Positions 9,420 through 31,528 are shown, counted from the first letter of the stretch. The stretch is DNA of 64,000 nucleotides from Catajapyx aquilonaris (GCA_000934665.2 JYFJ02000948.1:1-64000), one strand, 5' to 3'. The notes: generated from the letters alone by a model not told the origin. Program-made: numbers and translations.

Positions 9420-11342
9420 CCCCTCCTGGAGAGGAAGCAGAGCCACATGGAGGCGGATGTAAAATGTCGAGTCCTGGGAAGAATCAGCCATCGAGGATCA
9501 TGCAGACAGATACGGACTTTTATACAAACGGGGTCTGGCTGTCCGGGAGGAATGTTGGTGGCAAAGTACCCGGAAGTTATGCAGAGTGCAATCTGTTTGT
9601 GATTTATAATTTTTTGTTTATAATTCCCCCTTTCCCATCCTCCCTGCCCCATCTTTTTGAAGACATCCTAACCTGATCACAATCTTAATTTACTATTGTT
9701 TGCAAACTGCTTTTCTCTCCCGATTCATCCTGTACGGTAACTTCTCTCCTTCCAGAGCACTTATTCACTTCTTTTATCTATAATGTTCATTTTTTTTTAT
9801 TTTTTTTTAATCAACAGGTATGATGGTCGGCCCATCCCAACAATAACCGATACATGCAATAATTTGTTGTATTTTTGCCACTGTGTGGGAACTAGTGCAA
9901 ATCCTTTTTATTTTGCGTAGAGCATTTTTTTTTTTGCAATCAGTTTACCAAATGCACCATGTGCTTTTTTTTTTGTTGAAAAAAAACAAACATTTTTGTT
10001 TGAACTGGTGCGGAGTGTTCCTGGAACTATGGACTTGGGGAAGTGACGTTTAAAAAAAAAAAGGTTATCAATATGGATCTATCAATTGGACACTGGTTGT
10101 TCAAGCACATGAGGAATACTTGTGAGTTTTAGGCTCCCTTTCCCTCGACCCTCGACCCCTTGACCCATTGCACCCAGACCTAGACACTTTAAAACTGAAT
10201 TGATATGATTCTGGGACTATGTTTACATTCCTAATGAATTATTGCATTTTATATTTTGTCACTCGCATGGCAATCTCGTAATTCAAATTAATTTTCGCAA
10301 TGGTCACACGCAGTATTTTCCTTGCCGTTTATTAATGATTGGAAACTTATACTCCATAGATATGGTGCCTATTTTTATATTAATTTTTTCAATCCTCCCA
10401 TTGTAATTAAGTTCCTCCCAATACCATGTTATCATTGGAAGCAATTTTTTCCCCCCCTTCCTTTCCTTCCGATCCTGCCCCACATGTACCTTGCCCTGTG
10501 ATTATAAAATGCGATAGGTTTAATTAATGAGAAGGTGTCTGCATCCGATTTGGGAGGAAGCTGCTCAGACTGATTTACCCGAAAAATTTAAAACAAAGGA
10601 CACACTTTTTTTTTGTGTGCGAATTGAATTGCCAATATAGTGTGTTTATAGTCATAAGTTTAACTTCCTCCCGATCGTGTTTTCCCAACTTATTAAAAGA
10701 GAGAAAAGAAAATGGGGAAAGTTTGTGCGATGCCTGGGTATGTAAATTTATCCAGTGTTTCACTTTTTACTTTTGAAATGCCCATTTTTTTTGTTTGTTT
10801 TGACTTGTTATTGTGGCGACAATTGCTACCCATGTGAAAAGAAAAACAAAGAGTTAACCGCCTGTAACCCTCGAATTTGGTAAAAAGGAATGTCTTCCCA
10901 CTAAGTGTTGCGTACATTTTTTTTTTTTTTTGCACTAGAGTGTAAGGCAAACAGGTGGACTTTGGAATTGCATGAAGCGAGAGGTTGCATGCTGAATAGT
11001 AATGGCAACCTTGGTTAAGGTGAGTAGGCCAACAAACAATCAGAGGAAAGCAACATGGCAGGCAAGTCGGCTCGGTTGCCGTTGAAATGAGAACGAGAGC
11101 GATTAGTACCAGTGTAATGATAAAGCACAATGAGTGATTAGTCGTAATAATTGTCGTAGTGAATGCATCTGGCAGAAAATGTTACATGTGTAACGTACTG
11201 TGCAAATGGCCACAAAATCTTGATCAGCTAACATTGTGTGTTAAAGCAAATATTGATAACCGCTGAACAACATGTCGTAAAAATGAGACTGTGCAGTACT
11301 TGCTGATTGGAAATGAGGTATGAGCTGCATTTTTATTTCTAG

Positions 11343-13130
11343 GATGGCTGGAATGGGTTCGGAGCCCCTATTTCAAGCTGTATTGCGGACATACCTTGTC
11401 GTCATGGGGAGATCGCATGTGGGGATTTGCAGTCGGACTGTTCATGATCCAACTGGTCCCGGAATCGCTTGTGCTGACTGCGCTCTATGGATTCGTGAGG
11501 TCTGGGTCCGTGATATTGTTTGGCGCCTTGATCGGAAAGTGGATTGATGGGAGTTCACGCCTCAGAGGTAACCGAGCTTGTGTCATGATTCAACAAGAAT
11601 GTTAAAACTGAAATTAATAGCAAGGTTTTTATGTTTACATAGACAACTATTGTATCAGTACTTTTATCTTTCAAATTTGCAGCGGCTCGAATATCGATTG
11701 GGATACAGAATGTTGCTGTTGGTGTATCTGCCACTATCCTCTGCATATTCTTGTACTCTGAAGATCACCTGAAGTCAGGGACGCAAGAATGGCTGCCTAT
11801 AGTGATCTACCTGAGCGTAATATTCATGGCCTGCTTGGGCGAACTGGCAAGTGTGGCTACAAAGATAATAATAGAGAAGGACTGGATCGTGGTCATTACC
11901 AGTGGGGACAACGAGATGCTCGCAAGTACGCATTGTTGAGTAATAATTGCAGAGGTGTTAATAACTGACAACTTCTATTTTGCAAGAGATGAACTCAACC
12001 TTGCGCAGTATTGACCTGACGACATACATTGTGGCGCCAATTCTGGTCGGTCAGGTGATGACCTACATATCTCCCTCGGCTGCAGCTGTGTTTATGGCAG
12101 GATGGAATCTAGTCTCAATGGTTGTGGAGCTGTGGGTCATGCAGCTGATCTACAAGCAATTCCCAGACCTCTCACGGAGAAAAGGAATCGACAACGAAGT
12201 GCCAGCAGACTCCCCCGTCACGTGTTGGAGTGCATGGGCCATGTACTTCCAGCATCCAATATGCTTTGCAGGACTTGGTCTGGCAGCATTGTACATGACG
12301 GTGCTTGGATTTGACAGCGTGACAGTGGGTTATGCCTACGCCCAAGGGATATCGGAATCCATTTCTGGGATACTAACTGCTGTAGGAGCCTTGTTTGGAA
12401 TCCTCGGTAGCTTGGCTTTCCCGCGAATACGCCGCAGGATCGGGGTTGAACGGACTGGACTCCTTGGCTTTGGAATGGAGGTGGCCTGCTTATTGCTGTG
12501 CGTTGCATCCGTGTGGGCACCTGGCTCCCCATTTGACCCAACTGGTATCGTTGCCAACGAGACCATACCATACAATGCTACAGACAATGTCACTGTCAGC
12601 ACTACGAGCGCGTCTGAACAGCAATACACCTCCGTTGGTCTGTTGATGGCAGGAATTGTTCTTGCAAGATTTGGTCTGTGGACTGCCGATTTAAGTGTAA
12701 ATCAAGTCATTCAGGAGCAAGTCGAAGAGACAAAGAGGGGAGCTATTAGTGGTGTTCAGAACTCCATAAACATGGTGATGGAACTCATGAAGTTTGTGCT
12801 AGTCATTGCCCTGCCTAACTGGAATACCTTCGGCATACTTGTGCTCTTATCTTTCTCATGCGTATGTCTGGGGTAAGTCCTTCATGTCACTCTAACATAA
12901 GCGCTGCTCAGTGGTAGTTACTAAGCGGAATTCCTTTCCATTCCAGGTGGTTCCTGTTTGCATTGTATTCCAGACAGCGTCGAGGGCATCTGTTCCACTT
13001 TGCGAAGTTATTTGAATACTTTCAACCAGACGATGTGTACACTATGCAGCAAAATAACTTGCTGTCCATACGAGACGTGTCCTGGGAATCGTGCGCTTTT
13101 GACATGCTCCAGCACTACTCATTTGATTAA
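11343..13130 (+). CDS. SLC40A1: Ferroportin (SLC40A1) homolog, copy 1, canonical-like; first coding exon uncertain (candidate ATGGCAG at 11055-11061 via a GC donor)
   Basis: Exons 11343-11567, 11683-11925, 11987-12872, 12947-13130. Family motifs: GHTLSSWGDRMW, EKDWIVVI, MNSTLRSIDL, ALYMTVLGFD, WAPGSPFD, ARFGLWTADL, RGAISGVQNS, RGHLFHF. Confidence 0.92.
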
Positions 13131-13325: not shown

Positions 13326-15616
13326 TCAGGAGACCACCACTTCTGCATCCATGACCTCGACAATCTCTCCTTCAAGTGTGACCTCCTGACCTGACCAGGC
13401 ATCGCCTGACATGACCACCAAGGGTGCTGGCCATGATGAATTCTGATTGGAAGCATGGTGCTCCTTCAGGTACTCCCCGCCCTTCTCGTCATACTCAGCT
13501 CGGGTCACAAACGACTTCATATTGTCCTCCAAAGCAGCCCACTCCTTGGCTCCGTTCCAAGCATCCAACGCAGGGTTATTTGCTCTAGTGACCATGAATT
13601 TTGACTGGAAGGGTCGCATCTCCAGCAGTTCCTTGGTCACACGCTCTTGTAGGCCTGGATATGAAGCAGATCCGCCAGTGAGAAATATATTGCCAACCAG
13701 CTCCATCTGGACATCAGGAGGGTACTGGCGCAACACGTAGTCGACTGTTTCTGCGATCCCTGCCTGGTCCAGTCCGAGCATGGATGGCTGGAATAATAGT
13801 TCGGGGACACGCACACGCTCCACCCCGACGTGCAGCTGGTAGCTCTCGGCTGTGGTTGCAGCTGTGTTTCCAAGGTTTTGGAACTGGGGGTCGTGGCACC
13901 GCAAGGCAGCTTCCAGTTCGTTCAACTCCTCCTGCTCAGCCTCACTGTCCGTGTCCCCACCTTCCTGCAATGTTCAATACATAAGTACTCATCAGGGAAT
14001 GACAGCGATAGTGCAGTACCTTGCTGATGGCCTTGTAGACATCCCAGTCCTCGTCCTTCATCCCAAAGGTGTCGTCCTTCTTTTCCTTCCTGGCTAGTTG
14101 GCTGATGATTCTCATCCTCTCCTGTGCAGCCACGGTCCTTCTCTTGGCCATGTCTGTCCTCCGTTGTCTCCTGGCTGCCTTCTTCTTCAGGATGCCCTCC
14201 CTTTTTTGCCTGATCCCTTCCAGCCAACTCTCCAGGTTCTCCTTCTCTTTCGGCCCAATCCTTCCTTTCACCTCCTTCACCCCCTCATCTTGGGATGCTG
14301 GAGCAGCCATCTTCAGTTTGATTCGCTCCACCTTTGACTGCAGCTGCGAAATATGTCGCTGCAGGTCCCCAACCGACTCCACCTCCAGCTCACGTAAAGC
14401 GGCCTCCATTTCCTCCTCCTCTCCTTCATCCCATGTTTCCTTGAGGTTGATTAGACATTGGAGCCGCTCTTCATCTTCAGCCAGCCGCTCTTCACGTCGA
14501 CGCGCATTCATTTCAACAAGCCGTTTCGCAAGCTCTTTGCGACGTTCCTTTTGCTGTTCAGGTGTCAGCGCAACGACTGGTGCTGGTGTGTATGGAAGCT
14601 GCACACGGCGAACATGGGCATCGTAATAGTCGAAATCTGCCCAGCGTCGAAGATCTGCTTGGTAGTCCTCTGCCACATACGTGTGTCCTCGAGCCAGTTC
14701 CTCAGCTCTGCTTAGAGTAACGGCTGGTGCGTGTACTGGGTACTTGAGCTGCAGTAGACGGTGCATGAACGATGTAATGTGGAATCCTCCGATGCTAATG
14801 CGCCTTGCACGTGATGAGTCAACACGACCCTCCAGTACTGGCAGGATGTGCGTGGTATGGTGTCCACAATTCACCAACAAGGCTGAGCTGCCTGCGGGAC
14901 AGTTGTGACCAAGACTGAACAGACCATCGACTCCCAATGCCATACTCGGGACATGGTAGCATTCGAAGAGGAGCTCTGACACCACTGCAGGAGTAAGGCG
15001 TAATGAGTGTACATGCGATTTGGCAAGATGAGCTGTACTTACAATGTCGTGAGTAGTTTGGATTAAGAAAAGCTTCAGTCAGGACAACAGGGTGGTTGAC
15101 AGACCCTTCCGTGTCTATACCCATGTGCGTGAATATGTAATCAAACACATGCTCCTGTGCCTCGAAATGCGTGATGACATTCTTCTCAAACTGTGTCTTC
15201 AGTTGGAAACGGACCGCCTCGATATTGGCTATGTCGTTCCCAACCAGAATCTCCACATCCTGCCGAGAAGCCAATAATTCCCAATTAAAAAAAAAACTGC
15301 TTCGTAAAGCGGCATGATACACGTACCTTCTTCCCTTTCTCACGTCTAAGGCGGGCCATCAAGTTCTTAAAGACCATCTTCGGCTTCTCATCAGTCGCCC
15401 ATCCAACTCTGCACTGGTACGAACCTTGCAACAAGCACAGATAATTACAAAACATTAAAAAAAAATCATTATGCCAAGAGCTAATGATTATGCTCTTTGG
15501 GCGTTCATACCATTATCGATGACAATGGGCGTCCCTGCCCTCCTGATGCTATCCGTACAAGGGTAAATCGGATCCGCAACCACCCGCAGATCCTTCAGCT
15601 GAATAGTCTCCGCCAT
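13326..15616 (-). CDS. ACTR5: Actin-related protein 5 (INO80 complex subunit), about 674 aa
   Basis: Minus-strand exons 15616-15511, 15424-15327, 15259-15043, 14984-14020, 13964-13326 (2025 nt). [100 protein letters not shown]. Confidence 0.95.
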
Positions 15617-15828: not shown

Positions 15829-16766
15829 ATGGAGGAGGAAGAGGAAGAGGAGGACGCTGAAGGTTAGTGTGCACAGCAATGCAAATGTATACATGTACAT
15901 GTTCTTTTACGACAGTAGGTAATAAGAAGTGGACGACGACGACGACGAGGCGGTTCAGTTCTGTTTCCAAGCTGTACATGGGAGAGAGCTTCTCAGCATG
16001 GGGAGACCGCATGTGGCAGTACGCACTGGGACGCTACCTGGTCATCTTGTGTCCAAGCTCACTCAGGCTCACGGCCACTTACGGGTTCATTCGTTCCTTG
16101 TCCGTCATCTCCTTCGGTGCGTTGGTTGGAAAGTGGATTGATGGCAGCCCCAGGTTGAGAGGTAAAGTCCTACATGGCCGGACCGTTCCTTTTTTTTACA
16201 TTGTAAAGTGTGTCATTTATAATATAATAACTAGCAGCTATAGCAAGAGCCCGTTCTTCGCACGGCCTGTTGCCATATGGTTTGATGCTATATGGAGACC
16301 TGCTGGTTGCCATTTGAACCCGTAGAGTTGCTATGTACGAACAAACTAACGAACTTCGCCTTTTATACGTATAGACTAGTAGCAGAGCCTGTTCTTATAC
16401 GCTCGGCTTGTTTCCATGGTTAATTGATGCCATGGTAAACCATTGCAATAGGGTAATGGACAAACAAACTTTGCTTTTTATATGTGAAGATTATTATTAT
16501 GAATTTTTTTTTGTATGTTTATATGTGTACATTGCGCGAGTGTCTGTATGTATTCATGTCATCCTTTTCATTATCATCCTATCCATATTATACCCTCTGC
16601 TTGGCCTGACCGCAGTCATCAGAGGATATATACTCTTGATTATACTAGTGCGTTGTACTGTACGAGATCGCCAGGTGGATTGTACCTGGTCATCGCTGGT
16701 AACCCCATCTTGATGGGAATATGCCGTGAGTGAAATGAATTAATAAATTTATGAATAGAATCAATA

Positions 16767-16802
<36 letters not shown>

Positions 16803-18736
16803 AATGTGGGTAGTACCGTCGTCTTCTTAATTAAGCATTGCCTTGGCTGTAAATGTGCATATGCTCAGTACATGTACTACAGTATATCGCTCAAAAAGAT
16901 GGAGACTATTTTTTATTGGCACAATCGGCTCCATTTTTTTGAGTGATATAGTACATATTGGTTGCATTAATAACACCCTTAGGCAGAGTGTCATTTATTT
17001 ACAGCGATCCGAGTTTCCATTGGGGTTCAAAATTTGTGCGTGACCATCGCTGGTGTGCTGTTGTGCGTGTTTATGGAGAGTCAATATGCGGTGTGGATGG
17101 AGTATGTTTTCTACGCACTTATTATAATTGTGACCTGCCTTGCTGACTTGGCTAGTGTTGCTTCCAAGATCAACATTGAGAAGGATTGGACGGTCGTGAT
17201 TTCTGGAGGTGATAATGAAGTTCTTGCAGGTACAGAAGGATTGTCCAATTTGGAGCAAATTACTCTTTATTATACTTGAGCTAGTTGCATTAATTATTTT
17301 CCAGAGATGAACTCAAAGCTTCGCAGCATTGACCTCGTGACTTTCACCCTTGCACCCGGGTTGGTTGGCGTGCTGTTTACCTACATGTCTCCAACTTGGG
17401 CAGCAGTGACCATGATCTTGTGGAACCTGGTGTCCATGTCCTTGGAATACCACTTGCTCCATCTCATTTACAAAGAATGTCCTCGTTTGGCAGAGAAGAA
17501 GGCATCGGGCTGTACTGAGAAGCATGTGTGCACCTCCCGCTGTGAGATGGCAGACGTGACCTACCTGGCAGCATGGAAGTCTTACTTCAGCCACCCTGTG
17601 AGATGTGCAGGGCTAGGGTTGGCTTCTCTCTACATGACTGTGCTTGGGTTTGACAGTGACACCGTAGGATATGCCATAAATCAGGCAAGGACAGACATGT
17701 GGATGTTTAAAAAAAATTTGCTCTCATGTAAATCAATTGATGTCATTTGCAGCTTGCCTGTACATGGACAAACAGTAGGACTTGTAACAACATGGAAGGA
17801 AATGGCTGAATTACAATAATTTCTCAATTATTTCTTCAGGGTCTTCCTGATATCGTGGTTGGAATCCTGACAGGTGTTGGTGCCCTGTTTGGAATTGGTG
17901 GAAGCCTGGTGTATCCAGCAATGCGACGGAAGATGGGGATTGAGAAGACTACCATGTTGGGCTTTGTGATGGAAATTTCCTGCCTGCTGATTTGTGTGGC
18001 ATCCCTCTGGTGCCCAGGATCACCGTTTGACCCGTCACATGTCCAGTTCACTGCCTTTTACAACAGTTGTCAGGATGACAAGGAAGCCAATGGGATTCAC
18101 ACATTGCCTCTGAATTCAGAGAATCAGAGTTTCTGGGACAAATACACGTCAATCAGCGTGCTCATGACGGGCATCATCCTGTCTAGGTTTGGCTTATGGA
18201 TCATAGACATCTGCATCACGCAGATCATGCAGGAGAAGGTTGGTCCACTTTTCTTGCCAAAATATTTTGAAATCGTGCGTTCTTAATTTTTGTGTTGTTT
18301 CTTACTCTGCCCAGGTAGAAGAGATGAGACGTGGAAGCATCGGTGGGGTGCAGAACTCCTTGAACATGACTTTGGACTTAGTAAAGTTCCTGCTTTTACT
18401 GGTGTTTTCCGATACGGAGAACTTTGGCATCATGATTCTGCTGTCGGGAACATTTGTCAGTTTTGGGTCAGTGAAGCAGGATTTAATGTTACCCATCAAC
18501 TGTGGTCTTTTTCAAGATTGGACTGCTTTATCAGGATTACATATTTATTTATCTGCATCTCTTTTTTTTAAATTGCTGATTTTAAAAACATATACCAGTA
18601 TGAGAGCAAATGACTCCAGCCTCATGCACTGGAAGTCAAATTATATCTTTATTTATTTTTTTCCAGGTGGTTCCTATTCACTTTGTACTATTCTGGAGCA
18701 TGCATACCATCAGCCACCGCACCCGAATTTGAATAG
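15829..18736 (+). CDS. SLC40A1: Ferroportin homolog, copy 2, about 500 aa
   Basis: Exons 15829-15862, 15919 (or 15916)-16161, 17005-17229, 17305-17684, 17840-18238, 18315-18466, 18667-18736, frame-consistent. Motifs: SAWGDRMWQ, EKDWTVVI, MNSKLRSIDL, LYMTVLGFD, WCPGSPFD, SRFGLWIIDI, RGSIGGVQNS. Confidence 0.9.
16231..16490 (-). mobile_element. Two head-to-tail non-autonomous Helitron-like elements (16231-16375 and 16376-16490)
   Basis: On the minus strand each unit begins 5'-TC with an AT-rich ...ATAAAA(A)G and ends CTAG-3'. The first unit has a GC-rich subterminal hairpin (gcccgttcttcgcacggc), degenerate in the second. The array sits between an A and a T. Confidence 0.65.
16767..16803 (+). 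repeat. (GAT)n microsatellite, about 12 units
   Basis: Direct sequence inspection. Confidence 0.95.
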
Positions 18737-19163
18737 ATTTACAAAGGGAGAGTCAAAGTTTGAGAAGTGTTTACATCATTCACAACTAGAGTCGTCAACC
18801 CAATGCAGGTATTGAAGCATATATTGTAATATCAGCAATTTGTAATATTATATCTGGAATATCAGTACATTGCAGCAGGCAAGACTGTAACAAAGAGCAT
18901 AATAACTATATTCTTAAGCTCTTTGGCCTATAATGAGTTTTACATTGTTTACAGTGACATCGTCCTGATAAAATAGAAAGAGATTGCTTAGATACGATCT
19001 CATTTTCAGCATATTGTTGAAGCCAAATTGCAGCATTTCTTTTTACACCATGAGGCTGGTAGAGTTGTCTAAATTTTAAAGTTCAAGAAATACTGATTTT
19101 TACATTTTCCCAGTCCAAATTCTTCGTCAACCTGTGAGTACAATTGAGCCCTAGATTGCACCA

Positions 19164-22100
19164 ATGATGGAAGTGTTGCAGCCAAGCCGTGATGAACGCG
19201 AAGGTAGTGGTTCATATTATCAGAAAATGTACCATGACCATGATAAAACTTCATTTAGGACCAGTTTGTACTGTACAAACATGAGTTAAGATTGACTATG
19301 GACCAAGCTATGGACTTAGTTTGCATGTAAACTTGAGCTAATTATAGTTAACTAATGCTCACATAACTGGCCCCTAGTGGCATTATATCAGGGAATCAAG
19401 TCCAAGTTGTGTGCAGTCCAAGCCATTACATTCTGTGGCCAGCGACTGTGGAATTTTTCACTTGCATTCTACCTGATTCGTCTGATGCCTGATACTTTGC
19501 TGCTGCCTGCCCTCTATGGATTCCTCTACACAGGATCAGTTATTGCTCTTGGGACCAAGATTAACAAGTGGATTTTCGCCATGAACCGACTGGAAGGTAC
19601 TGTCTCTTGGAATGATATTGACTTTTGTACATCTTTGCATCATTTTGCAGCTCTCCACTGGTCAAATTATACGCACTATACAGCCATGCTTAGCTGTACA
19701 GTAGTTATCTACTTGGTCATGTACTTTGAGGAATGGTTAGAAGGGCAACAGACAAAGACTCTGACCTACTGTGGTTATGCAGTCATCATGATTCTCTCTT
19801 GCATTGGGGATCTGGCAGGTGTGGCCAACGATGTGACCATTGAGAATTGGGTGGAGGCCATATTTATGGAACACGCAGATGAGATATCAAGTGTGTAGTG
19901 AAATGCCTAATTTTGCATTTTATGATGTCTGAAGAAGAGACCCTTTAGTATTATTACTGACTATCTAAAAGATCTCACTGCAAAATCATATTTCTCTCTC
20001 TCGTCTCCATTATGTAGGTGTGAACGCCATGCTGAGCAGCGCTTCTCGTGCTACAAACGTCCTGGCCCCTGTTGTTGGTGGCCTGGTATTTCAGTACCTT
20101 CCTGTGATCTACATTACTATATTCATGGCCTCTTGGATTCTGATAGCCATGTTCCTGGAGCATTACTTCATGACCAAAATATATCACTGTGTTCCTGACC
20201 TTGCTGAAACCCAGTGCATGCTAACTTCTGGTGTCAACATGTGTAATGTCATGAAGAATGTAAGCTGTCAGAAAGCATGGTCGACATACTTCAGGCAAAG
20301 AGTTTGCATTGTTTGTGTAGGCTTTGCCCTTACTTATGCATCAGTGCTGGAGTTTGCTGGTGTCACCTACACATATGCAGTAAACCGTGGCCTGAACAAG
20401 TTTGTTGTTGGAATATTTGCCGGAGTGGCTGCCTTTTTCGAAGTAGTTGGAGGATTAGCATCTGTCGCTATTGAGAGAAAGTTGCACCCACTTACTACAG
20501 GCAATCTGAGTTACTTTCTGGGCTGCCTGTTTCTCTGGCCATGCGTTGCTTCTCTGTGGGTGAAAGGATCTCCATATGAAGAATATTTCCAAGAAGTTCG
20601 CCTGGAAAGGATTAAGGACGTAACCAAATTGCGTAACCTGTCATTCAACACTTTATCCCAGTATGAATCCATCACCATGCTGATGGGTGGGATCGCATTC
20701 TCTGCATTTGGAATGAGGATGGTGGGCCAGGTGGTTGCGAGGATGTGCAGAGTCAATGTTTTGCAACACGAGAGGCCCATGGTGGGAGGTGTGCAAACAT
20801 CTATCGAAGCAGTGATGACGTTGATGAAGTTCGTCATAGCCATTGCTATTCCTGGACTGAAGACATACTACATCCTTGTTTTAATCTCCATCTTGATGGT
20901 GCATTTGGGGTAAGGAATCAAATGGTATGCTATTTGTAATCAAGCTTTAGTCTAATATTTGACTTACCATTTAAAATCGTGGTGGTAATACAACTATATT
21001 GCTTGAGGAACCATATAAATTTGTGAATAGCAATAAATTATACGGTATACTCTCTAAGTTCAAATGAAGCTCTTGAATCAGGAAACAGTACATGTTACAT
21101 TGAAATTCTTTAAATAATAATCATTGTGGGTAGTGCTTTTGACCCCTTGGGTACAAGCACGGACCTCTTGATTTTATCTATTGGTGCATTTGTACATCGC
21201 GGGACCTTTCCTGAAATGGCCGGGCCCAATGGGCAAGGTGACAGGAGGGGATATGCAATGTGCAGTGCAAAGTTGCTAATATGGTACATAGTTTGTGAAC
21301 TCCCCCGGGTGGATATGTATAGAGGAAATTCCACCCAAGATGAAGCCAGAGACGACCCAACTCTGCATGAGATGAAGGGGGTGTCTCCGGGCTGGGATCG
21401 AACCCGGGACCTTAACATCTGTGGGCGCATACGTTACCGCAGCGCCACTCCGCCTCCCTATGTTACATTGAAATTGAGTTTGCACTTCTGAAATTGTTTC
21501 TCTGAGTTCCTCTGCAAGCCACATGAGCTTTGCACATGCACCAAACTTGCCATATACTGGTATTCCAGTTTTTAAAGTGTACAATACAAAATGAAACATA
21601 AAATGTAAGCAGCACCAAGAAGAATACTGATAGCACCCGTTTTACTCCGGTAATTGGTTCCAGCAAAATGCGGCGTAAAGTCAAAAGGCATAAAAACGAG
21701 ACAAAATTATAATGGGAGTAAATGAGATAGGTTCCAAGATTTCCTAAATTTTCCCTCAGACAGGACTTGTATGACTCTTTTTAATGCTGACTATTTTAAA
21801 CATTTATTATGCACATTTAATGGGAGGTGGGAGGTTGTGGGTGATCTGGTTCTGAGACCTCTTTTCCCTTCTTTTGGCAAGAACTGCAGTAGACATAGGG
21901 TATTTAACAGACGTCGGAGAGTGCTGAGACCAACAATGCAGTACTGTATTTATCGATAGACCCCCGCAACAAGGCACCACGAAAAACAAAAAAGAGCATT
22001 TATGGCAATGATTTTGAACTCAGAAGTGTTGCAGTGATGTGTTTATGTTCAGATTGTGTAGGTGTCGTCAAATATTTGTAACAATTTGTCAATTGAAATT

Positions 22101-22662
22101 TTTAAACATGTAATTTTCAAACTGGCACGGCATTAATGTGAAACAGCGTAAAATGGAGCAGTGTAAAACGAGTACCTTCTGTGACCAGATGCCTTACCTA
22201 ACAGTGTTATGAGTGTACATTAACAGAGTAAAAATGCATACAAAGTGAAATATAACATAGGCATGGTCTACTCTTCTTTGAATGTGCATTTCAATGTATA
22301 CATCAGCATAAAATAATAACAACAGAACATAAGAATAAAAATAAAAAACAAAGTGCAGGCCTGCCACCTACAACTGAGGTTTGGCGCACCTGCATTACTT
22401 TATATAGCTTACATAGCTATGTAGCTTATATAGCTTACAGTGGGTCTGAGAGCAACATGTGCACAATTGCAATTAGTTTTTTATGTAGCAGTTTTCCAAT
22501 TCCATGGTTCAATTGCTTTTTTTTTCTAGGTGGATATTTTTTGCAATCTACACCTGCAAGAATGCTTCCTGTTGTGCAGAATATGAAGAAAGCCCACAAG
22601 AAGAAGAGGAACATGTCACATGGACAAGTACACTTTCATATGCCTTCAACAAGTGGATATAA
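19164..22662 (+). CDS. Divergent ferroportin-like MFS transporter, copy 3, about 507 aa
   Basis: Exons 19164-19203, 19378-19596, 19651-19890, 20018-20909, 22530-22662 (1524 nt, open). Same intron positions and phases as copy 1. Residual motifs: GQRLWNF, ALYG, TNVLAP, AWSTYF, SLWVKGSPY, GGVQTS. Confidence 0.85.
21108..21459 (-). mobile_element. tRNA-derived SINE with a 16-bp target-site duplication
   Basis: The minus strand begins GGGAGGCGGAGTGGCGCTGCGG (A box) ... GGTTCGATCCC (B box) and ends in an AT-rich (ATT) tail. It is flanked by atgttacattgaaatt at 21092-21107 and 21460-21475. Confidence 0.85.
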
Positions 22663-24239
22663 TTTTAACTGGTATGTCATGCTTGACATTTTCAATGCAT
22701 TTCCCATGGTACATTTAATCTGTATATTATTGCAAGTGTCACCTTCAGGGGTATTGAGCATGTGAAAGGATCTCATCTACGATTGTCATTGGCTCTAGTT
22801 GTGGTAATTCTTAGGAAGTGGGTTGCTAATAATATTATGTGAAAGAAGTGAAAGTCCAATTTTGCCAGACTAGATCCCCAACTGAGACTCTGGAGTTGAA
22901 GACATTTGTTTTGAAATTTCCAGCATAATGTTGAGACGGAAAGGGTTAGTAGCATTGGGTAATTTTTGTATAAGACTATCTGGCACTGTTAGACAATTGT
23001 AAATTTTTTGAACATGTTATTGGCCAAGAAAAGTAATATTTCGTAAACAAAACCATTGTGCAACCCTGTTTGCACCGTGTGGCAAGCCTTAAAATGGGGG
23101 CAATACACGTATCTTATTGGACAATTTGCATACGGTACCTAAAAATTAATAATGTGCTGTCATTTACATAAAAATTAATGGTTTTTAAATTTCTCCAATG
23201 CTTTTGTGTCCATTTTGCATTTGAAAAAGATAATTTTCAATTCCAGATTTCTTAGTTGGGGATCTACATAGGGCAAAATGGACATTTTGTTCTAATATCA
23301 TTGGTAACAAACTCACTGAAAGTTATCATGAATTAAGTCTACAGTCATGCAGGAAGGGATCCTTTGATGCAGCCAAGTTACTACATTGCTAAAGAAATTC
23401 ATGAATGAGTGCATTGTGGAAATATGAAAATGGCCTCAGGAAAAATGCAACAAATTATTACAGTGCTTAGAATTTATCTTAATAATGATGGTTGATATGA
23501 ATGATATCTTCCAGTGAAAAATTTCCTCCTCTACATGTGATTGGAATAAATCATGTATACACATTCCAGTATTGTTTGGACCGGTTTGGACTGACGGGGA
23601 CAAACCTGAGTGGTGATTGTGGCTGAAGATCTGTGCTTTCTCTCGCACATTTTCAGGCTAGTCTTATCCATTGCAGTATGTTCTACATGGGAATAATATT
23701 GTACCATAATTATGCCCTTGGCCTTTCAGTAACAAGCTTCCACTGGGCTTGCATCTAGATGTGGTAGGATGTGCATAGAAGGGACAGAGCAGTTATTAGT
23801 GCTAACAGGCAACATATGGGTGGTCCTGCAAGGAGGTGGTGATTGTTATTGAACTAGTTGGGTTATGCAGCTGACTACCTGTGTAATGCATGAGATTCAC
23901 AAGGGAAACGGGATATGAGATTAGATAATGAGCTATAAGAACTATAACGTATGAGACTCCTTAGAGAGTAAAAGTGTTAGAGCATTCTCTCAGAGATGTT
24001 TAAAGCATAGACAAGTTTGTACGATACCCTATGTGACACGTCTAACTTGTAAGTTTTCTGGAGACTCTGGACGTAGTCACTGACTGGAAAATGTGGATTC
24101 TGGACCTGGTCACCAATTAATTCAGTATTACCCTTGTTTAGGGCAACATAATTATATTAGGCTTTCTACAATGTGGAGTATGATAATATTCCACAGGTAC
24201 AGTACATACCTTGTATACATTGTAGCTGGTAATAATTCA

Positions 24240-24403
24240 ACAACAACAACAACACCATCACGACATTTCCCTAGAAGGGGTAGTCAGCGACGACGGGAGC
24301 CACAAGCTAACCCAAAATATGAACTAAATTAAAACTGGTAAAAATCAGCCTATATAAACACCCTGATCCGCCCCACACCCCTGCCCATCTCAGTGTTTGT
24401 CGT
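24240..24403 (-). mobile_element. 5'-truncated non-LTR retroelement or SINE 3' end with a (GTT)n tail
   Basis: A (CAA)n run on + at about 24238-24254; a 14-bp direct repeat ctggtaataattca at 24226-24239 and 24404-24417. Confidence 0.75.
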
Positions 24404-24671
24404 CTGGTAATAATTCAGTAGTAATTAATGGATTTTACATTGTTTCCAATAGCATCCTGGCAAATAGACTGAGATTGCCTAGATACGATGTGCCTCATTT
24501 TCAATATTTTGTTTACCATTGTTGAAGCCTAATTTCAACTTTTAAAAATACCATGAGGCTGGTAGAGTTGTCTGTTAAATTTAAAAGTTTAAGAAATACT
24601 GATTTTTACATTTGCCAGCTACAAAATTTTCATCACCTGTGGGGACAATTGAGCTCTAGATTGTATCAATA

Positions 24672-27237
24672 ATGACAGAAGTGTTGCAGCCAAACTATGA
24701 TGAACATGAAGGTAATGGTTCATATTGTCACAAAATACCTTAATAGGCTCAGTTTGAATATTATGTTATTTAGTGGCATTATATCGAAGAATCAAGTACA
24801 AGTTGTGTGCAGTCCGAGCCTTTACATTCTTTGGACAACAACTTTGGAGTTTTTCATTTGGATTATCCCTCGTTTTTCTGATGCCGGATTCTCTGCTGCT
24901 ACCTGCCTTGTACGGATTCCTTCACACTGTATCCATTATTCTTCTTTACCACAGGATTAGCAAGTGGGTCTTCTGCAGGAACCGATTGAAAGGTAATATC
25001 TTGGGAATTATTGAAAATTTATTGCTGCTTGTGACATACATCTTGCATCATCTTGCAGCTCTTTACTGGTCCAGTGGCACCCACTATGCAGGCATGCTTA
25101 CCTGTGCACCAGTCATCTTCTTGGTAGTGTATTTTGAAGAATGGTTTGAGGGGCATGAGAAAAAACTGATGACCTACTGTGCTTATGCAGTTATCATGAT
25201 TCTCTCTTGCGTTGCAATGCTGGCAGGTGTGGCCAATGACACAACCATTGGGAGTTGGGTGGAGTTCATATTCCAGGACCACACAGACGAGATAGCAAGT
25301 GTGTAGTGCAGTGTATTGTGCATTTCATGTCTAAACTCTAAAGGATGTACTCTCTCTGTTATACAGTCTATTATGGAGTATGCGAAAGCACTAATATTTC
25401 TTTTTTTTTTCTCTCTCTCTCTCTCTCTCTTCATTATGTAGGTGTGAACACCATGCTGAGCAGTGCTTCTCGTGCTGCAAATATCCTGGCCCCCATTATT
25501 GGTGGCCTGGTATTTCAGTATCTTTCTGTGATTTACATTTATATGTTCACCATCTCTTGGATTCTGCTAGCCATATGCTTGGAGTTTTACTTCATGATCA
25601 AAATACATAACAGCATTCCTGCCCTCTCTGAAACCACATGCATGATAACTCATGGTGTCAACCTGTGCACTGTCATGCAGAATGTGAGCTGTCGGAAAGC
25701 ATGGTCTACATACTTCAGGCGAAGTCTTTGCATTTTTGGTGTAGGCCTTGCGCTTACCTATGCGTCAGTGCTGGAGTTTGATGATATCACCTACTTATAT
25801 GCAGTAAACCGGGGCCTGAATAAGTCTGTGGTTGGAATATTTGCTGCAGTGGCTGCCTTTTTCGAAGTAGTTGGAGGATGGGCATCTCTGGCCATTGAGA
25901 GGAAGTTGGGACCACTTACTACAGGCAATCTGAGTTACTTTCTGGGCTGCCTGTTTCTCACTCCATGCATTGCTTCTCTGTGGATGAGGGGATCTCCATA
26001 TGAAGCATTTTTCCAAGAAGTTCGCCTGGAAAGGATTAAAGACATAACCAAATTGCGTAATCTGTCATTCAACACTTTTGCCCAGTATGAATCCATCACC
26101 ATGCTGATGGGTGGGATCACATTCTCCACATTTGGAATGAGGATGGTGGGCCAGGTGGTTGCGAGGATGTTCCGACGCAGTCTTTTGCCAGCGCAGAGGC
26201 CTGTGGTCGGAGGGGTACAAACATCCCTGGAATCAATCATGATGTTGATTAAGTTCGTCGTAGTCATTGCTATTCCTCGACTGGAGACATACTACATCCT
26301 TGTTTTACTCTCCTTTTTAATGGTGAATTTCGGGTAAGGAATCAACCAGTATGCTTTCCTTAATAATTAAGCTTTGATGAAATATTAAACTTTCTATTTT
26401 AATACAAGGAGCGTTCAAATATGAACATCAATTTGCTAATTACAGAAGCAAAAAGATAAACTTACCTAAGTTGGTCACATCATTCAACCCAGTCCCTCTG
26501 CTTTGCAATGCACTAGTGCCATAGTTCAGTGTAGCTTCTGTGTTCTGCTTTTTAAAGATGTCTTTAGCCTCTGGAACAATATCGCTTACCTCCTCATTAC
26601 TAGAGAACTTTCTTGCTTCCAAAAATATGTTCAGAGGTCTGAAGTCCGGAATGCAAGTCCGACGGGTTGAGATCAGGACTGTACGGGGGATGGGGGAGAA
26701 CAGCCACTTAAAATTTTGCATCATCACCATCGTATGGGCAGTGACATGTGGACATGCATTGTCTTGCAGGAAGAGCATGGGACTCTGGCTTTTCCCTCTG
26801 ATATTTCAGTTGGTTTCTGATAATGGTGTCCACACTACCAACACAGATATTCAAAGTGGAAGCAATATCACTCACAGAAATCCGTCTATCATCACAAAAT
26901 GAGCTCCTCAACTAGGGAAGCATTCTCTTCCTTTAATTAAATAAAAGGTTGGACGCATTACGCAGCATCACCTGCTGGGTACAGCTTCCGCATATGCATT
27001 GTTGTTTTGTGAGAGAAATTTAAATTGCTGTTCATATTTGAAGGCTCCTTGTACAATTTTACAATACCACAGTGAACAACATGCATGATGTTAACAGCTG
27101 CCATAAATGTTTTTTTTAGGTGGATTTTATTTGCAATCTACAGCTGCGGTCGTAAAGAAATGCCAGAGGAAGAGCCCATATCAATATTCGTCGCATGGCC
27201 AACTGTACTTTCTGATCTCTTCAACCAGTGGACATAA
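24672..27237 (+). CDS. Divergent ferroportin-like MFS transporter, copy 4, about 502 aa
   Basis: Exons 24672-24711, 24774-24992, 25059-25298, 25442-26333, 27120-27237 (1509 nt, open). Close paralog of copy 3. Confidence 0.85.
26405..27051 (-). mobile_element. Internally deleted mariner element in the last coding intron of copy 4
   Basis: 30-bp TIRs caaggagcgttcaaatatgaacatcaattt and aaattgctgttcatatttgaaggctccttg with TA flanks (26403-04, 27052-53). Minus-strand transposase remnants: DRRISVSDIA..L.I..GSV, LQDNACPH, frameshifted HPPYSPDL. Confidence 0.9.
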
Positions 27238-27849
27238 TTTAAATTGGTATACTATGCAAGGCATTTTCAATGCAATTGTCTAAATACATGCAATTTGCAC
27301 ATTTTTTTTATTTTTACAGGTGTCACCTTTAGCACTTCTGAACATATATATGTCAGCTCCTAACTGAAAATGCGAAAGGTTCCCATCCAGGATTGTTACC
27401 CCATTGGCTCCAATAGCAATGAAATTTTAGTGAGAGTCTTCTCCAAATTATTAGAAGAAAGATTGAAACAAGAGAAGGGAAAAATGCAGCTTACACGAAG
27501 TCATCTCAATGATGCGGTTTGATATCCTACAGTGAAAAATTGCCAGCTCTAGAATAAAATATCATGTACGTATATACATAATGCTATAATTATAGTGTTA
27601 TTGTTTGGACTGACTGATCGGGAGTGGTGAGTTGTGGCCAAAGGTCTGTGCTTTATTCTTTCGTTCATATTCAGGTTATAGTCTTTTCCAATTCAATGAC
27701 AGTGGAAGATGATGTTTTGGTGAGCAGTTTGAAATCTTGTAAATTGCTGGAAAAGCCTCCAGGTGGCAGCACTGGGCAGATGGGCTGGAATTCCTGGAAT
27801 GTCAGAACGTCTTTGGACTGTCTGAATCAGCTGTCTGAAGAGTACGTCT

Positions 27850-28400
27850 GAAGGATGCAGGACGACCAGAATGGACAGCGCTGGACGACCTGGTTTCCTC
27901 TGGAAGGAGGGTGCCACCACTGTGGACATCCACAGGCGCCTGGTGTCTGTGTGTGGGGTGTATGCACCGGCGAAGAAGACTGTAGCCTACAACTGGGTGG
28001 AGGGCTGGAAGAACGGCCGCACCTCAGCTGAGAAGGGGACCAGCCCTGGAAGGAGGGTGAGCGTGGCCACACCAACCACAGTCGCTCGGGTGGAGAGGGT
28101 CATCCTGGAGAACCCCAGCATCACCTTCTCGGAGCTGGAGGGGGCCACGGGACTAGCCAGAGTCACCTTGCAGCGCATTGTGCATAAGCACCTGCAGATG
28201 ACAAAGGTCTCTGACAGGTGGGTTTCCAAGTCCAAGACTGCAGCCGAAGACAGTCAGCACATGTGGACGAATTTGCAGCAATCTCCTACAACGATATGAC
28301 CAAGGATAACTGGAAACCAAGGCACATTCCATGTCCATGCAGTGGAAACGTAACAAAGAATTTCCGGATGGCAATTGGCGTGTGCAGGGTCATGGCATTT
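27850..28400 (+). mobile_element. Degenerate mariner transposase N-terminal (HTH) fragment
   Basis: IHRRLVSVCG..WVEGWKNGRTS..PGRRVSVAT..VERVILENPSIT..EL..TLQRIVHKHLQMTKVSDRWV matches the mariner HTH/WVP-motif pattern. No catalytic domain and no TIRs recognised. Confidence 0.8.
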
Positions 28401-28584
28401 TGAGACACACAGGACATCATGTTGTTAACCCTCCTTGTGCTGTGGGTGTCAGCTTGGAGCCTATTTGATTTATTAGCGTTTACTCTCTAAAATTGTGTGG
28501 GTGTAGTGAATCAAACATTGCATGCAGCCTCATTTCACAACCATGAACTCCTGTAACATTGATAGTTACTACCCAAGAATGATG

Positions 28585-29080
28585 TAGTAAAACTTCTATA
28601 AGTCGAATCTCCATGGGACCGGGAAAAAACTTCGAGTTATAGAAGATGCGAGTAGAGAAGTTTGGATTTTTTAAAGCACAGAACTCTATGAGGAAGCCTA
28701 CCTTTATATCCAGCGACGAAAGGTGTTCAAAGCTTAAAAATAACTGCCACTATCACACTTACAATATTCCTCATTGTTTTGTCTTAAAAAAACAACTCCG
28801 TTATGGACATTTGCCTACTCTTTGATTCAAGGATTCAATTGTCACAATCGAGTCAAGCACTTCTTTCGGTATGTCTGGTATGTAGACAGAGATCAGGAAA
28901 TTGAGCCTTTCTCACTTTCTGTACATGTGGCCTACTCTCGACCCTTCCGCTGGGAAATGAAAAAATCTTCTGTACTCGCCAACGTAAACTTCGACTTAGA
29001 GATACTGAAAATGCATTGATATCCCATCGTAATAAGGCCCTGCCAGCACTTCGAGTGATATAAATTCGAGTTAGGGGAGT
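28585..29080. mobile_element. pogo/Tigger-like MITE remnant
   Basis: Left end tagtaaaacttctataagtcgaa...aacttcgagttataga; right end acttcgacttagag...ttcgagttaggggagtttt. Degenerate inverted ends with repeated TTCGA modules. Confidence 0.5.
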
Positions 29081-29612
29081 TTTTTATTTATTTTTATTTT
29101 TTATTAAAAAAAAAAAAACATTTTACTCTGTGATAGGCCGGAGCCCTCTTAGGGGGGAAGGGGAGGTTCTCGAGGGAGGGCGCTGTAATTATAGTCATTT
29201 CTGACTTTCTGAAATACACCAGACCTGTGGGAATGAGTTAGGGTTAGGGAAAATGTCAGCAATTTGTAATATTATTTCTCGAACATCAGTACATTGCAGC
29301 AGGCAGGCCTGTAATTGATGAGTTTTACCAGGGAGCATATACTACATGTAGTATATGCTATATGTAGTATATGCTCCCTGGTTTTACATTGTTTGCAATG
29401 ACATTCTTTTCAAATGGAATGAGATTGCTTAGATATGTCTTATTTTCAGCACATTGTTTACCATTGTTGAAGCCAAATTGCAGCATTTTTCTTACTCAAA
29501 GAGGCTGGTAGAGTTGTCTAAATTTACAAGTTCAAGAAATACTAATTTTTCCATTTTCCTGCTACAAATTCTTTGTCAATCTGTGGGTACACTTGAGCCC
29601 TAGACTGCACCA

Positions 29613-31528
29613 ATGACAGAAGTATTGCAGCCAATCCATGATGAACATGAAGGTAATGCTTCATATCATCACAAAATACCGTAACAGTTGAGTTTGAATT
29701 ATCTGATTTAGTGGCATTATATCGGAGAATCAAGTACAAGTTGTGTGCAGTCCAAGCCTGTACATTTTTTGGCGAGCGACTGTGGCATTTTTCATTTCAA
29801 TTGTCCCTTATTAATTTGATGCCGCAATCTTTGATGCTCCCTGCCGTGTATGGATTCCTCTACACTATGTCCATTAATGCACTTTACACCAAGATTTGCA
29901 AGTGGGTCTTCTGCAAGAACCAACGGACAGGTAATATCTTCGGGATTTATTGAAAATGACATGCATCATTGCATCATTTTGCAGTTCTTGACTGGGCCAA
30001 TGCAATCCACTATTCATCCATGCTTACCTGTGCATTAGTCATGTACTTGGTCGTACACTTTGAAGAATGGTTAGGAGAGCAAGACGAGACGAAGCTGCTG
30101 ACCTACTGTGGTTATGCAGTCATCATGGTTCTCTCTTGCATTGCGGAGCTGGCAGGTGTGGCCAACGACACAACCATTAAGAATTGGGTGGATGTCATAT
30201 TCATGTACCACAAGGATGAGATTGACAGTATGTAGTGATATGAGTTATTCTGCATTGTATGAGGTCTTGTGTATGGAACCTTGATTTTTGTTGAGAATTT
30301 GGAAGAACTAAAATTTAATGTGTTCTCTCTCCCTCTCCATTATGTAGATGTGAACACCATGCTCATCAGTGCTTCTCGTGCTACTAATGTACTGGCCCCA
30401 ATTATTGGTGGAGTAGTTTTTCATTACCTTCCTGCTATCTACATTACTGTTCTTGCCATCTGTTGGATTCTGCTGTCAATGTTATTGGAGCATTATCTAA
30501 TGAGGAAAATATATGCTTGTGTTCCTGCTCTTAATGATACCACATGCTTGATAACTTCTGGTATCAACATGTGCACTGTCATGAAGAATGTGAGTTGTTG
30601 GAAAGCATGGCGGACATACTTTAGTCAAAATCTTTGCATTGTTGGTGTAGGCTTCGCCCTTACTTATGCATCAGTGCTGGAGTTTGATGGTGTCACCTAC
30701 TCATATGCAGTTAACCGGGGCCTGAATAAGTTTGTTGTTGGCATGTTTGCTGGAGTGGCTGCCTTTTTCGAAGTAGTTGGAGGATTAGCCTCACTGGCCA
30801 TTGCGAGAAAGTGGGGCCCATTTGCTACAGGCAACCTGGGTTATGGACTGGGCTGCCTGCTTCTCTGGCTGTGCATTGCTTCTCTGTGGGTGAAGGGATC
30901 TCCATATGACAATCATTTCCAAGAAGTTCGCCTGCAAAGGGTGGCAGACATAACGCAAGTGGATCTGTCATTGGACACTATCTCTGAATATAAATCCATC
31001 ACCATGCTCATGAGTGGGATCATGTTCTCCACATTTGGAATGAGGATGGTGGGCCAGGTGATTTCAAGGAAGTTCAGAGTTAATGTTTCGGAACGGGAGA
31101 AGCCTGTGGTAGAAGGGGTACAAATATCTCTGGAAGCAATCATGATGATGGTGAAGTTCATCATAGTCATTGTCATTCCTGGACTGGAGACATACTACAT
31201 CCTTGTTTTAATCTCCTTCATGATGGTGCATTTTGGGTAAGGAATAATGAAGAACTCGCATGGTACCTTTCAACATCCCAGTGTGTAATGTTTAACTTTA
31301 CATTGGTTTAGCTTAGCTGATGATGTCATACAAAAACTCATGATTTGTGAACAGCATAAATAATATGTTTTGAGCAGTCATCAATGTGCAGAATTTTTTT
31401 CTAGGTGGATTTTATTTGCAATCTATAGCTGCAGGAGGCATTGCATTAGTGAAGAAATACTAGAGGAAGATGAGCCTTCCGTCACATGGTCAAATATACT
31501 TTCTTTCATCTTCAACCAGTGGATGTAA
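29613..31528 (+). CDS. Divergent ferroportin-like MFS transporter, copy 5, about 504 aa
   Basis: Exons 29613-29652, 29712-29930, 29985-30227, 30348-31236, 31405-31528 (1515 nt, open). Paralog of copies 3 and 4. Confidence 0.85.

Follow-up and report, generated by a model that had tools for sequence, protein, structure and literature searches.

Ferroportin (SLC40A1) and its relatives are usually regarded as exporters of metal cations. The closest described systems are the human and tarsier ferroportins and the bacterial homologue BbFpn, and what is said here of cited papers follows excerpts of them. Two metal sites have been described, S1 formed by Asp39 and His43, and S2 formed by Cys326 and His508 with Asp325 and Asp505 nearby, in a cavity that is "highly negative" (PMC7655804). 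A Ca2+ site comprises Asp39, Gln99, Asn100, Asn212 and Glu219 (PMC9883014). The inner gate is built from two networks, Arg88-Asp157-Arg489 with Asp84, and Arg178-Asp473 with Asn174-Gln478, and Asp157Asn and Gln478Arg are among the disease alleles (PMC12246770). Simulations show Arg40-Asp181 and Arg466-Asp325 contacts (PMC13702422), and Arg466, Leu469, Trp470 and Asp504 touch ligands in the central cavity (PMC10030120). Here we describe three genes of this family in a 64,000-nucleotide stretch of DNA from Catajapyx aquilonaris (GCA_000934665.2 JYFJ02000948.1:1-64000), referred to below as the window. They are copies 3, 4 and 5 of a tandem array of five ferroportin-family genes, all on the + strand, detected by tblastn and with the Pfam family FPN1, and they occupy 19164..31528, from the ATG of copy 3 through the stop of copy 5. 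The genes are intact and the fold is kept, and the canonical sites are gone. With a probability of roughly 50%, we read them as real, selectively maintained, fast-evolving SLC40 derivatives stripped of these sites, most likely transporters of the major facilitator superfamily (MFS) with an altered substrate or coupling.

Gene models for all five copies were predicted from the sequence, using reading frames, splice borders and homology. Copies 3, 4 and 5 each have five predicted exons, encoding 507, 502 and 504 amino acids. A start codon is present in each, the terminal stop is the sole stop, and all 24 splice borders are canonical (GT at 12/12 donors, AG at 12/12 acceptors). Exon 4, which encodes transmembrane helices (TM) 5 to 12, scored 134.6–149.8 bits against Pfam FPN1 (PF06963), for which the cut-off is 24.6, and this places all three in the family. 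An AlphaFold2 (AF2) model of exon 4 of copy 3, computed from a 49-row alignment, had a predicted local distance difference test score (pLDDT) of 86.8 and a predicted TM-score (pTM) of 0.80, with a non-helical break between TM7a and TM7b. For TM5-12 of copy 3, the part that was folded, the model thus predicts an MFS fold in which TM7 is discontinuous; for TM1-4 the fold is predicted from the sequence alignment. In Foldseek, the eight best matches to this model were human or tarsier ferroportin (query TM-score, TMq, 0.67–0.73), followed by the bacterial homologue, while the ESM Atlas returned generic SLC40 and MFS clusters only.

Copy 3 was aligned to human ferroportin chains with HMMER, and the columns were checked on a MAFFT alignment of 106 sequences, made up of the five copies and 101 of the 150 best database relatives (those of 430–720 residues were kept). 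Positions are given in human numbering and residues in the order of copies 3/4/5. The substitutions that the original prediction had read by eye, at 39, 157, 178, 181, 466 and 473 and in the 504 region, were all recovered. Asp39 is Gln/Gln/Glu, so that the acid survives only in copy 5, and position 43 is Asn/Ser/His; a TM1 acid combined with His43 is found in copy 5 alone, and the N-lobe metal site (an acid at 39, with His43 in vertebrates) is not kept by the group. Around the C-lobe site, Asp325 is retained in copies 4 and 5 only, Arg466 is Ala/Thr/Thr and Asp504 is Thr/Met/Met, so its usual environment (Asp325, Arg466 and Asp504, with Cys326 and His507 in vertebrates) has been dismantled. 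At the Ca2+ site Gln99 is His, Asn100 is Tyr and Asn212 is Ile in all three copies, with Glu219 the sole residue kept.

The inner gate has fared no better. Asp84 is replaced by Phe in all three copies, Asp157 is Asn/Ser/Asn and its neighbour Arg156 is deleted (one residue), Arg178 is Ser/Ser/Ile, Asp473 is Gly, and Gln478 and Gln481 are both Arg. Neither Arg88-Asp157-Arg489 with Asp84, nor Arg178-Asp473, nor Asn174-Gln478 is complete, and the earlier observation that both partners of the Arg178-Asp473 bridge are lost together is correct. Asp181 is Ser throughout, and each of the four salt-bridge pairs lacks at least one partner. Gly490 is Pro. At 15 inner-gate and near-gate positions of human loss-of-function alleles, taken from the allele list as excerpted from PMC12246770, copies 1 and 2 keep all 15 residues; copies 3-5 keep four in all three copies, two in part and nine in none. 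Two of the substitutions, Asp157Asn in copies 3 and 5 and Gln478Arg in all three, match disease alleles on that list. Judging from these residues, copies 3-5 are very probably not canonical Fe2+ exporters working by the H+/Fe2+ mechanism, and they probably no longer export iron.

The helix charges lost are Asp84, Asp157, Arg178, Asp181, Arg466, Asp473 and Asp504. Those gained in common by copies 3-5 include Lys/Arg78, Glu/Asp160, Arg182, Glu323 and Glu353 (both in place of Gly), Arg470 (in place of Trp), Arg478, Arg481 and Glu500 (in place of Asn). The new Arg residues four positions beyond the lost 178 and 466, and the new Glu residues in TM7 and TM11, which were part of the original prediction, are thus present as Arg182, Arg470, Glu323 and Glu500. 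A gain of the same sign lies three or four residues from a loss in the same helix in four cases (157 to 160, 178 to 182, 466 to 470 and 504 to 500), which would fit a relocated network, and Glu323 is two residues from Asp325. By homology, Arg470 is predicted to line the cavity. One form of the change would be a switch of substrate class, in which an Arg-rich relocated network (182, 470, 478 and 481) and the three new Glu residues replace the acidic cavity, to suit a neutral, zwitterionic or anionic solute, or a soft metal bound through new His99/Glu sites. We offer this tentatively, as a rather unlikely version; if true, these would be the first SLC40 members not exporting hard divalent cations.

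Loss has fallen on particular kinds of residue. Among the 24 polar or charged columns that are at least 70% conserved in the family, three are kept in all of copies 3-5, compared with 22 in copy 1 and 24 in copy 2; among the 86 other columns conserved to this degree, 47 are kept, compared with 80 and 77. The difference in retention between the two kinds of column in copies 3-5 is significant (Fisher p=1.9e-4). Copies 3-5 also keep only 21 of 41 family-invariant columns (copy 1 keeps 41 and copy 2 keeps 38). That constraint lies mainly on the scaffold, that the sequences evolve fast, and that none of the four canonical salt-bridge pairs needed for alternating access is complete (PMC12246770, PMC13702422) would suit folded membrane proteins that have given up transport for another role, as receptor, scaffold or regulator, possibly of copies 1 and 2. 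We consider this unlikely, because all three copies share the new charges on the cavity-lining TM5, 7, 8, 10 and 11, where buried charges are costly unless used, because the break in TM7 is retained in the model, and because no partner or signalling domain is present. We favour instead a transporter, most likely one whose cavity is less anionic and whose substrate or coupling has changed.

Not every departure from the human protein belongs to this change. Copies 1 and 2 have Gly and Gln at position 43, and both have Ser at 326 and Lys at 507. Across the family, Lys is commonest at 507 (64%), and at 43 and 326 conservation is low and the most frequent residue is Ser (29% and 33%). His43, Cys326 and His507 are also absent from copies 1 and 2 and from most invertebrate relatives, so they are vertebrate features rather than residues lost by copies 3-5. 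The proposal of a rewired metal site therefore stands for the metal-site and gate residues that have been replaced, but its part concerning these three residues describes ordinary invertebrate variation. As a separate observation, Glu39 and His43 of copy 5 (TM1, 29712-29930) resemble the vertebrate S1 pair, and copies 1 and 2 are without His43.

Where the three genes came from was examined in a tree of 50 rows (the five copies and the first 45 hits of 450–700 amino acids). The five copies formed one clade (Shimodaira-Hasegawa-like approximate likelihood ratio test, SH-aLRT, 98). The stem leading to copies 3-5 is long, at 1.86 changes per site, with tips of 0.16–0.26, and the tips of copies 1 and 2 are 0.40 and 0.72. 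The placement of copies 3-5 beside copy 2 is weak (SH-aLRT 74), and a shared intron pattern points to copy 1. The best identity of copies 3-5 to any of the 101 aligned relatives is 28–32%, and copy 1 has named relatives in the ferroportins of centipede, horseshoe crab and Daphnia. When 1.84 billion representative proteins were searched with a profile built from exon 4 of all three copies, 664 hits reached E<=1e-3, the best scoring only 152.7 bits; eight of the top 12 were inspected and had the canonical residues. With exon 4 of copy 3 as the query, a word-indexed search of proteins gave none at E<=1e-5 among 1536 candidates (162–518 amino acids). A literature search on ferroportin paralogs that have diverged or expanded in invertebrates or arthropods, and on Arg178/Asp473, returned nothing relevant, which is not proof that none is in print.

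Copies 3-5 are maintained as coding genes. At branch lengths of 0.107–0.125 changes per site, and with stops arising from 4.0% of mutations, neutral evolution would leave all three frames open with a probability of 5.6e-9 in simulation and 1.2e-9 by analytical calculation. The coding sequences have two to four gap events per ~1500 nt, all multiples of three, compared with seven or eight per 300 nt in the flanks, a depletion of about tenfold, which upholds the earlier contrast between intact frames and indel-rich flanks. Nucleotide identity is 0.80–0.82 in coding sequence and 0.62–0.79 in flanks. The 202 single-step replacements have a mean BLOSUM62 score of +0.42, where -0.38 is expected, and none of 5000 simulations reached this value. 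The columns in which copies 3-5 all agree tend to be those that the family as a whole conserves better (Mann-Whitney p=1.1e-4). The ratio of nonsynonymous to synonymous substitution (dN/dS, or omega) was 0.60–0.90 in pairwise comparisons, depending on the method. It varied across column classes (p=1.5e-4), with 0.48 at 110 family-conserved columns (p=3e-7) and 0.87 at 140 intermediate columns, and by region it ranged over 0.59–0.93 within the core, where only TM5-6 was nominally below 1. Constraint on the three copies is weak but real.

Several results weigh against our reading, and most of them favour relaxed duplicates that are becoming pseudogenes, drifting nearly neutrally after the loss of their sites and merely still undisabled. 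The joint three-taxon codon model gave an omega of 0.81, which does not differ significantly from 1 (likelihood ratio test, p=0.066); omega at the remaining 251/501 codons was 0.97, so that 391/501 codons lie at 0.87–0.97; and five of the six regions, tested singly, were not significantly below 1. The former key positions 39, 157, 325, 326, 466 and 504 vary among the copies, which looks more like released constraint than like a new conserved site. The invariance of the new charges is itself weak evidence, since the three sequences are 67–69% identical and ~57% of their columns are invariant anyway. No ortholog of the group was found among the 1.84 billion representative proteins, and as arthropod proteomes are present in that library, this absence carries some weight, though it is not proof. 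The G+C content of third codon positions (GC3), 0.50, is intermediate between copies 1-2 (0.56–0.61) and introns (0.33–0.38). Against decay stand the neutral chance of ~1e-9 for three open frames, the scarcity and in-frame lengths of coding indels, the 24/24 splice sites kept, the conservative bias of replacements and the omega of 0.48 at conserved columns. Decay would fit only if function had been lost very recently, and we hold it to be improbable. The original prediction spoke of purifying selection, and named a dN/dS near 1, combined with a lack of expression, as a sign of pre-pseudogenes. Selection does maintain these genes, but it is not strong, with about half of the codons near 1; the overall 0.81 alone comes close to that sign, but four maintenance results oppose decay.

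Selection of the opposite kind, diversifying and adapting the copies to varied ligands as in fast-evolving tandem families, was also considered. A class of sites with omega >1 improved the fit (twice the log-likelihood difference, 2dlnL, 37.0 for all sites and 18.4 without the gapped tail), and all three tandem copies have been kept. However, 2dlnL dropped to 4.18 once site-to-site rate variation was allowed, so positive selection is not robust; a large share of the highest-ranking sites fall in the C-terminal tail, where the alignment is poor, and three sequences give little power. We consider this explanation improbable too.

Taking the copies as maintained SLC40 derivatives, their history may have run as follows. 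A ferroportin duplicate arising within the lineage would have become the ancestor of copies 3-5. The SLC40 scaffold, including the broken TM7, would have been preserved while the polar and charged residues that define it were selectively removed: the TM1 aspartate shared by the metal and Ca2+ sites, four of the five Ca2+-site residues, Asp504, both inner-gate networks (Arg88-Asp157-Arg489 with Asp84, and Arg178-Asp473 with Gln478), and the Arg40-Asp181 and Arg466-Asp325 pairs. Like charges may then have re-emerged on the same cavity-lining helices, displaced by roughly one turn, as Glu/Asp160, Arg182, Arg470 and Glu500, with Glu323, Glu353, Arg478 and Arg481 as further additions. Evolution after the triplication, a recent event, would have proceeded under relaxed constraint, possibly owing to redundancy among the copies. 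Omega on the stem could not be estimated because synonymous divergence (dS) from copies 1 and 2 is saturated, and saturated dS likewise precluded a baseline for copies 1 and 2 themselves. As a rough inference, mean omega along the stem was below today's 0.8, and constraint relaxed after the triplication.

The exons of the three genes, all on the + strand, are laid out alike. Exon 1 of copy 3 (19164..19203) holds the ATG plus 13 codons and ends in phase 1, and copies 4 and 5 share its open reading frame (ORF) and GT donor. Exon 2 (19378..19596; TM1-TM2) has AG/GT borders and aligns with human ferroportin residues 32-90. Exon 3 (19651..19890; TM3-TM4) has AG/GT borders, is supported by the HMMER alignment and follows a 54-nt intron that is stop-free and in frame. 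Exon 4 (20018..20909; TM5-TM12) gave the Pfam FPN1 score of 149.8 bits, the AF2 model and the ferroportin matches in Foldseek. Exon 5 (22530..22662) encodes the C-terminal tail and the stop; it has an AG acceptor, its frame runs on from exon 4, and homologous last exons occur in copies 1, 2, 4 and 5. For copy 4 the exons are 24672..24711 (ORF and splice border), 24774..24992 and 25059..25298 (splice borders), 25442..26333 (Pfam FPN1, 142.5 bits) and 27120..27237 (splice border and frame). Those of copy 5 are 29613..29652 (ORF and splice border), 29712..29930 (which encodes the Glu39 and His43 found in no other of the three), 29985..30227 (splice borders), 30348..31236 (Pfam FPN1, 134.6 bits) and 31405..31528 (splice border and frame). 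Intron 2 of copies 3 and 4 (19597-19650, 54 nt, and 24993-25058, 66 nt) contains no stop and has a length divisible by three, and its retention would add 18 or 22 residues, respectively, with the frame preserved. Intron 2 of copy 5 (54 nt) contains a stop.

Copies 1 and 2 are canonical ferroportins. Copy 1 (11343..13130, +), which served as the reference within this genome, scored 276 bits against Pfam FPN1 and has exons at 11343-11567, 11683-11925, 11987-12872 and 12947-13130. Its exon at 11343 starts in phase 1 without an in-frame ATG, and inspection of the upstream sequence (11100-11343) by eye revealed no first coding exon. Its introns lie at the same four positions as those of copies 3-5. 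Copy 2 (15829..18736, +) has seven exons (15829-15862, 15916-16161, 17005-17229, 17305-17684, 17840-18238, 18315-18466 and 18667-18736) and two additional introns, so that 17305-18466 comprises three exons where copies 1 and 3-5 have one large exon. One of the extra introns, at 17685 after exon 17305-17684, is of the GC-AG type.

The unit duplicated in copies 3-5 extends from ~230 nt 5' of the ATG to ~200 nt 3' of the stop. The upstream ~230 nt (18931-19163, 24426-24671 and 29381-29612) are 77–82% identical between units, equal to the coding sequence, with 62–64% in the downstream flanks, and this upstream segment may be a shared promoter or 5' untranslated region. A 63-nt stretch of 90% identity lies 5' of copies 3 and 5 (18828-18890 and 29252-29314), with none reported 5' of copy 4. 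Copies 1 and 2 are separated by an actin-family gene of the minus strand, at 13326-15500 (Pfam Actin in two ORFs, E 1.2e-24 and 1.2e-9). It carries a long charged insert, which we take to be typical of actin-related protein 5, making that protein a candidate identity. An early impression of mariner-like remnants between the copies was not supported, as Pfam assigned no family to the 12 other ORFs of the window that were searched. Single N bases occur at 44521 and 51846 of the window.

The three genes amount to a natural experiment on the SLC40 fold without its metal-binding and gating residues. Active proteins would show how buried charge pairs in an MFS transporter can shift by one helical turn, and they could expose a new substrate for the family. 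If inactive, they would show how long a multi-pass membrane gene stays open under very weak constraint. In either case, annotating such genes as iron exporters by homology is unsafe.

How do copies 3-5 compare with the known systems? Human and tarsier ferroportin (SLC40A1; PDB 6w4s, 6wbv, 8dl6-8, 8bzy and 6vyh) belong to the same Pfam family and are the best structural match for TM5-12, at 24–26% identity. Kept in common with them are the discontinuous TM7, Tyr318, Asn174, Glu219, Trp42, Trp158, Pro189 and several helix glycines. Compared with the human protein, copies 3-5 lack Asp84, Asp157, Arg178, Asp181, Arg466, Asp473 and Asp504, copies 3 and 4 lack an acid at 39, only Glu219 is left of the Ca2+ site and Arg156 is deleted; new Arg residues appear at 182, 470, 478 and 481, and new Glu residues at 323, 353 and 500. 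An Rfam scan of 9000-33000 detected no 5' iron-responsive element for them, giving three weak sub-threshold matches only. With copies 1 and 2 and the non-insect arthropod ferroportins (centipede, horseshoe crab and Daphnia), they share the invertebrate states at 43, 326 and 507, but they are only 30–31% identical to copies 1 and 2. The Bdellovibrio protein BbFpn (PDB 5aym, 5ayn, 5ayo and 6btx) matches the fold of the copy 3 TM5-12 model (TMq 0.55–0.66), but, as described in the excerpts of PMC12246770 and PMC7655804, it retains the TM1 aspartate, the Ca2+ site and the Arg-Asp-Arg gate trio, whereas copies 3-5 do not. Family members with other metal substrates have been described, namely Aspergillus fumigatus FpnA (Ni/Co/Ga) and the plant IREG/ferroportins (nickel handling). 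They show that the SLC40 family is not confined to iron; FpnA and the plant proteins are still divalent-metal transporters.

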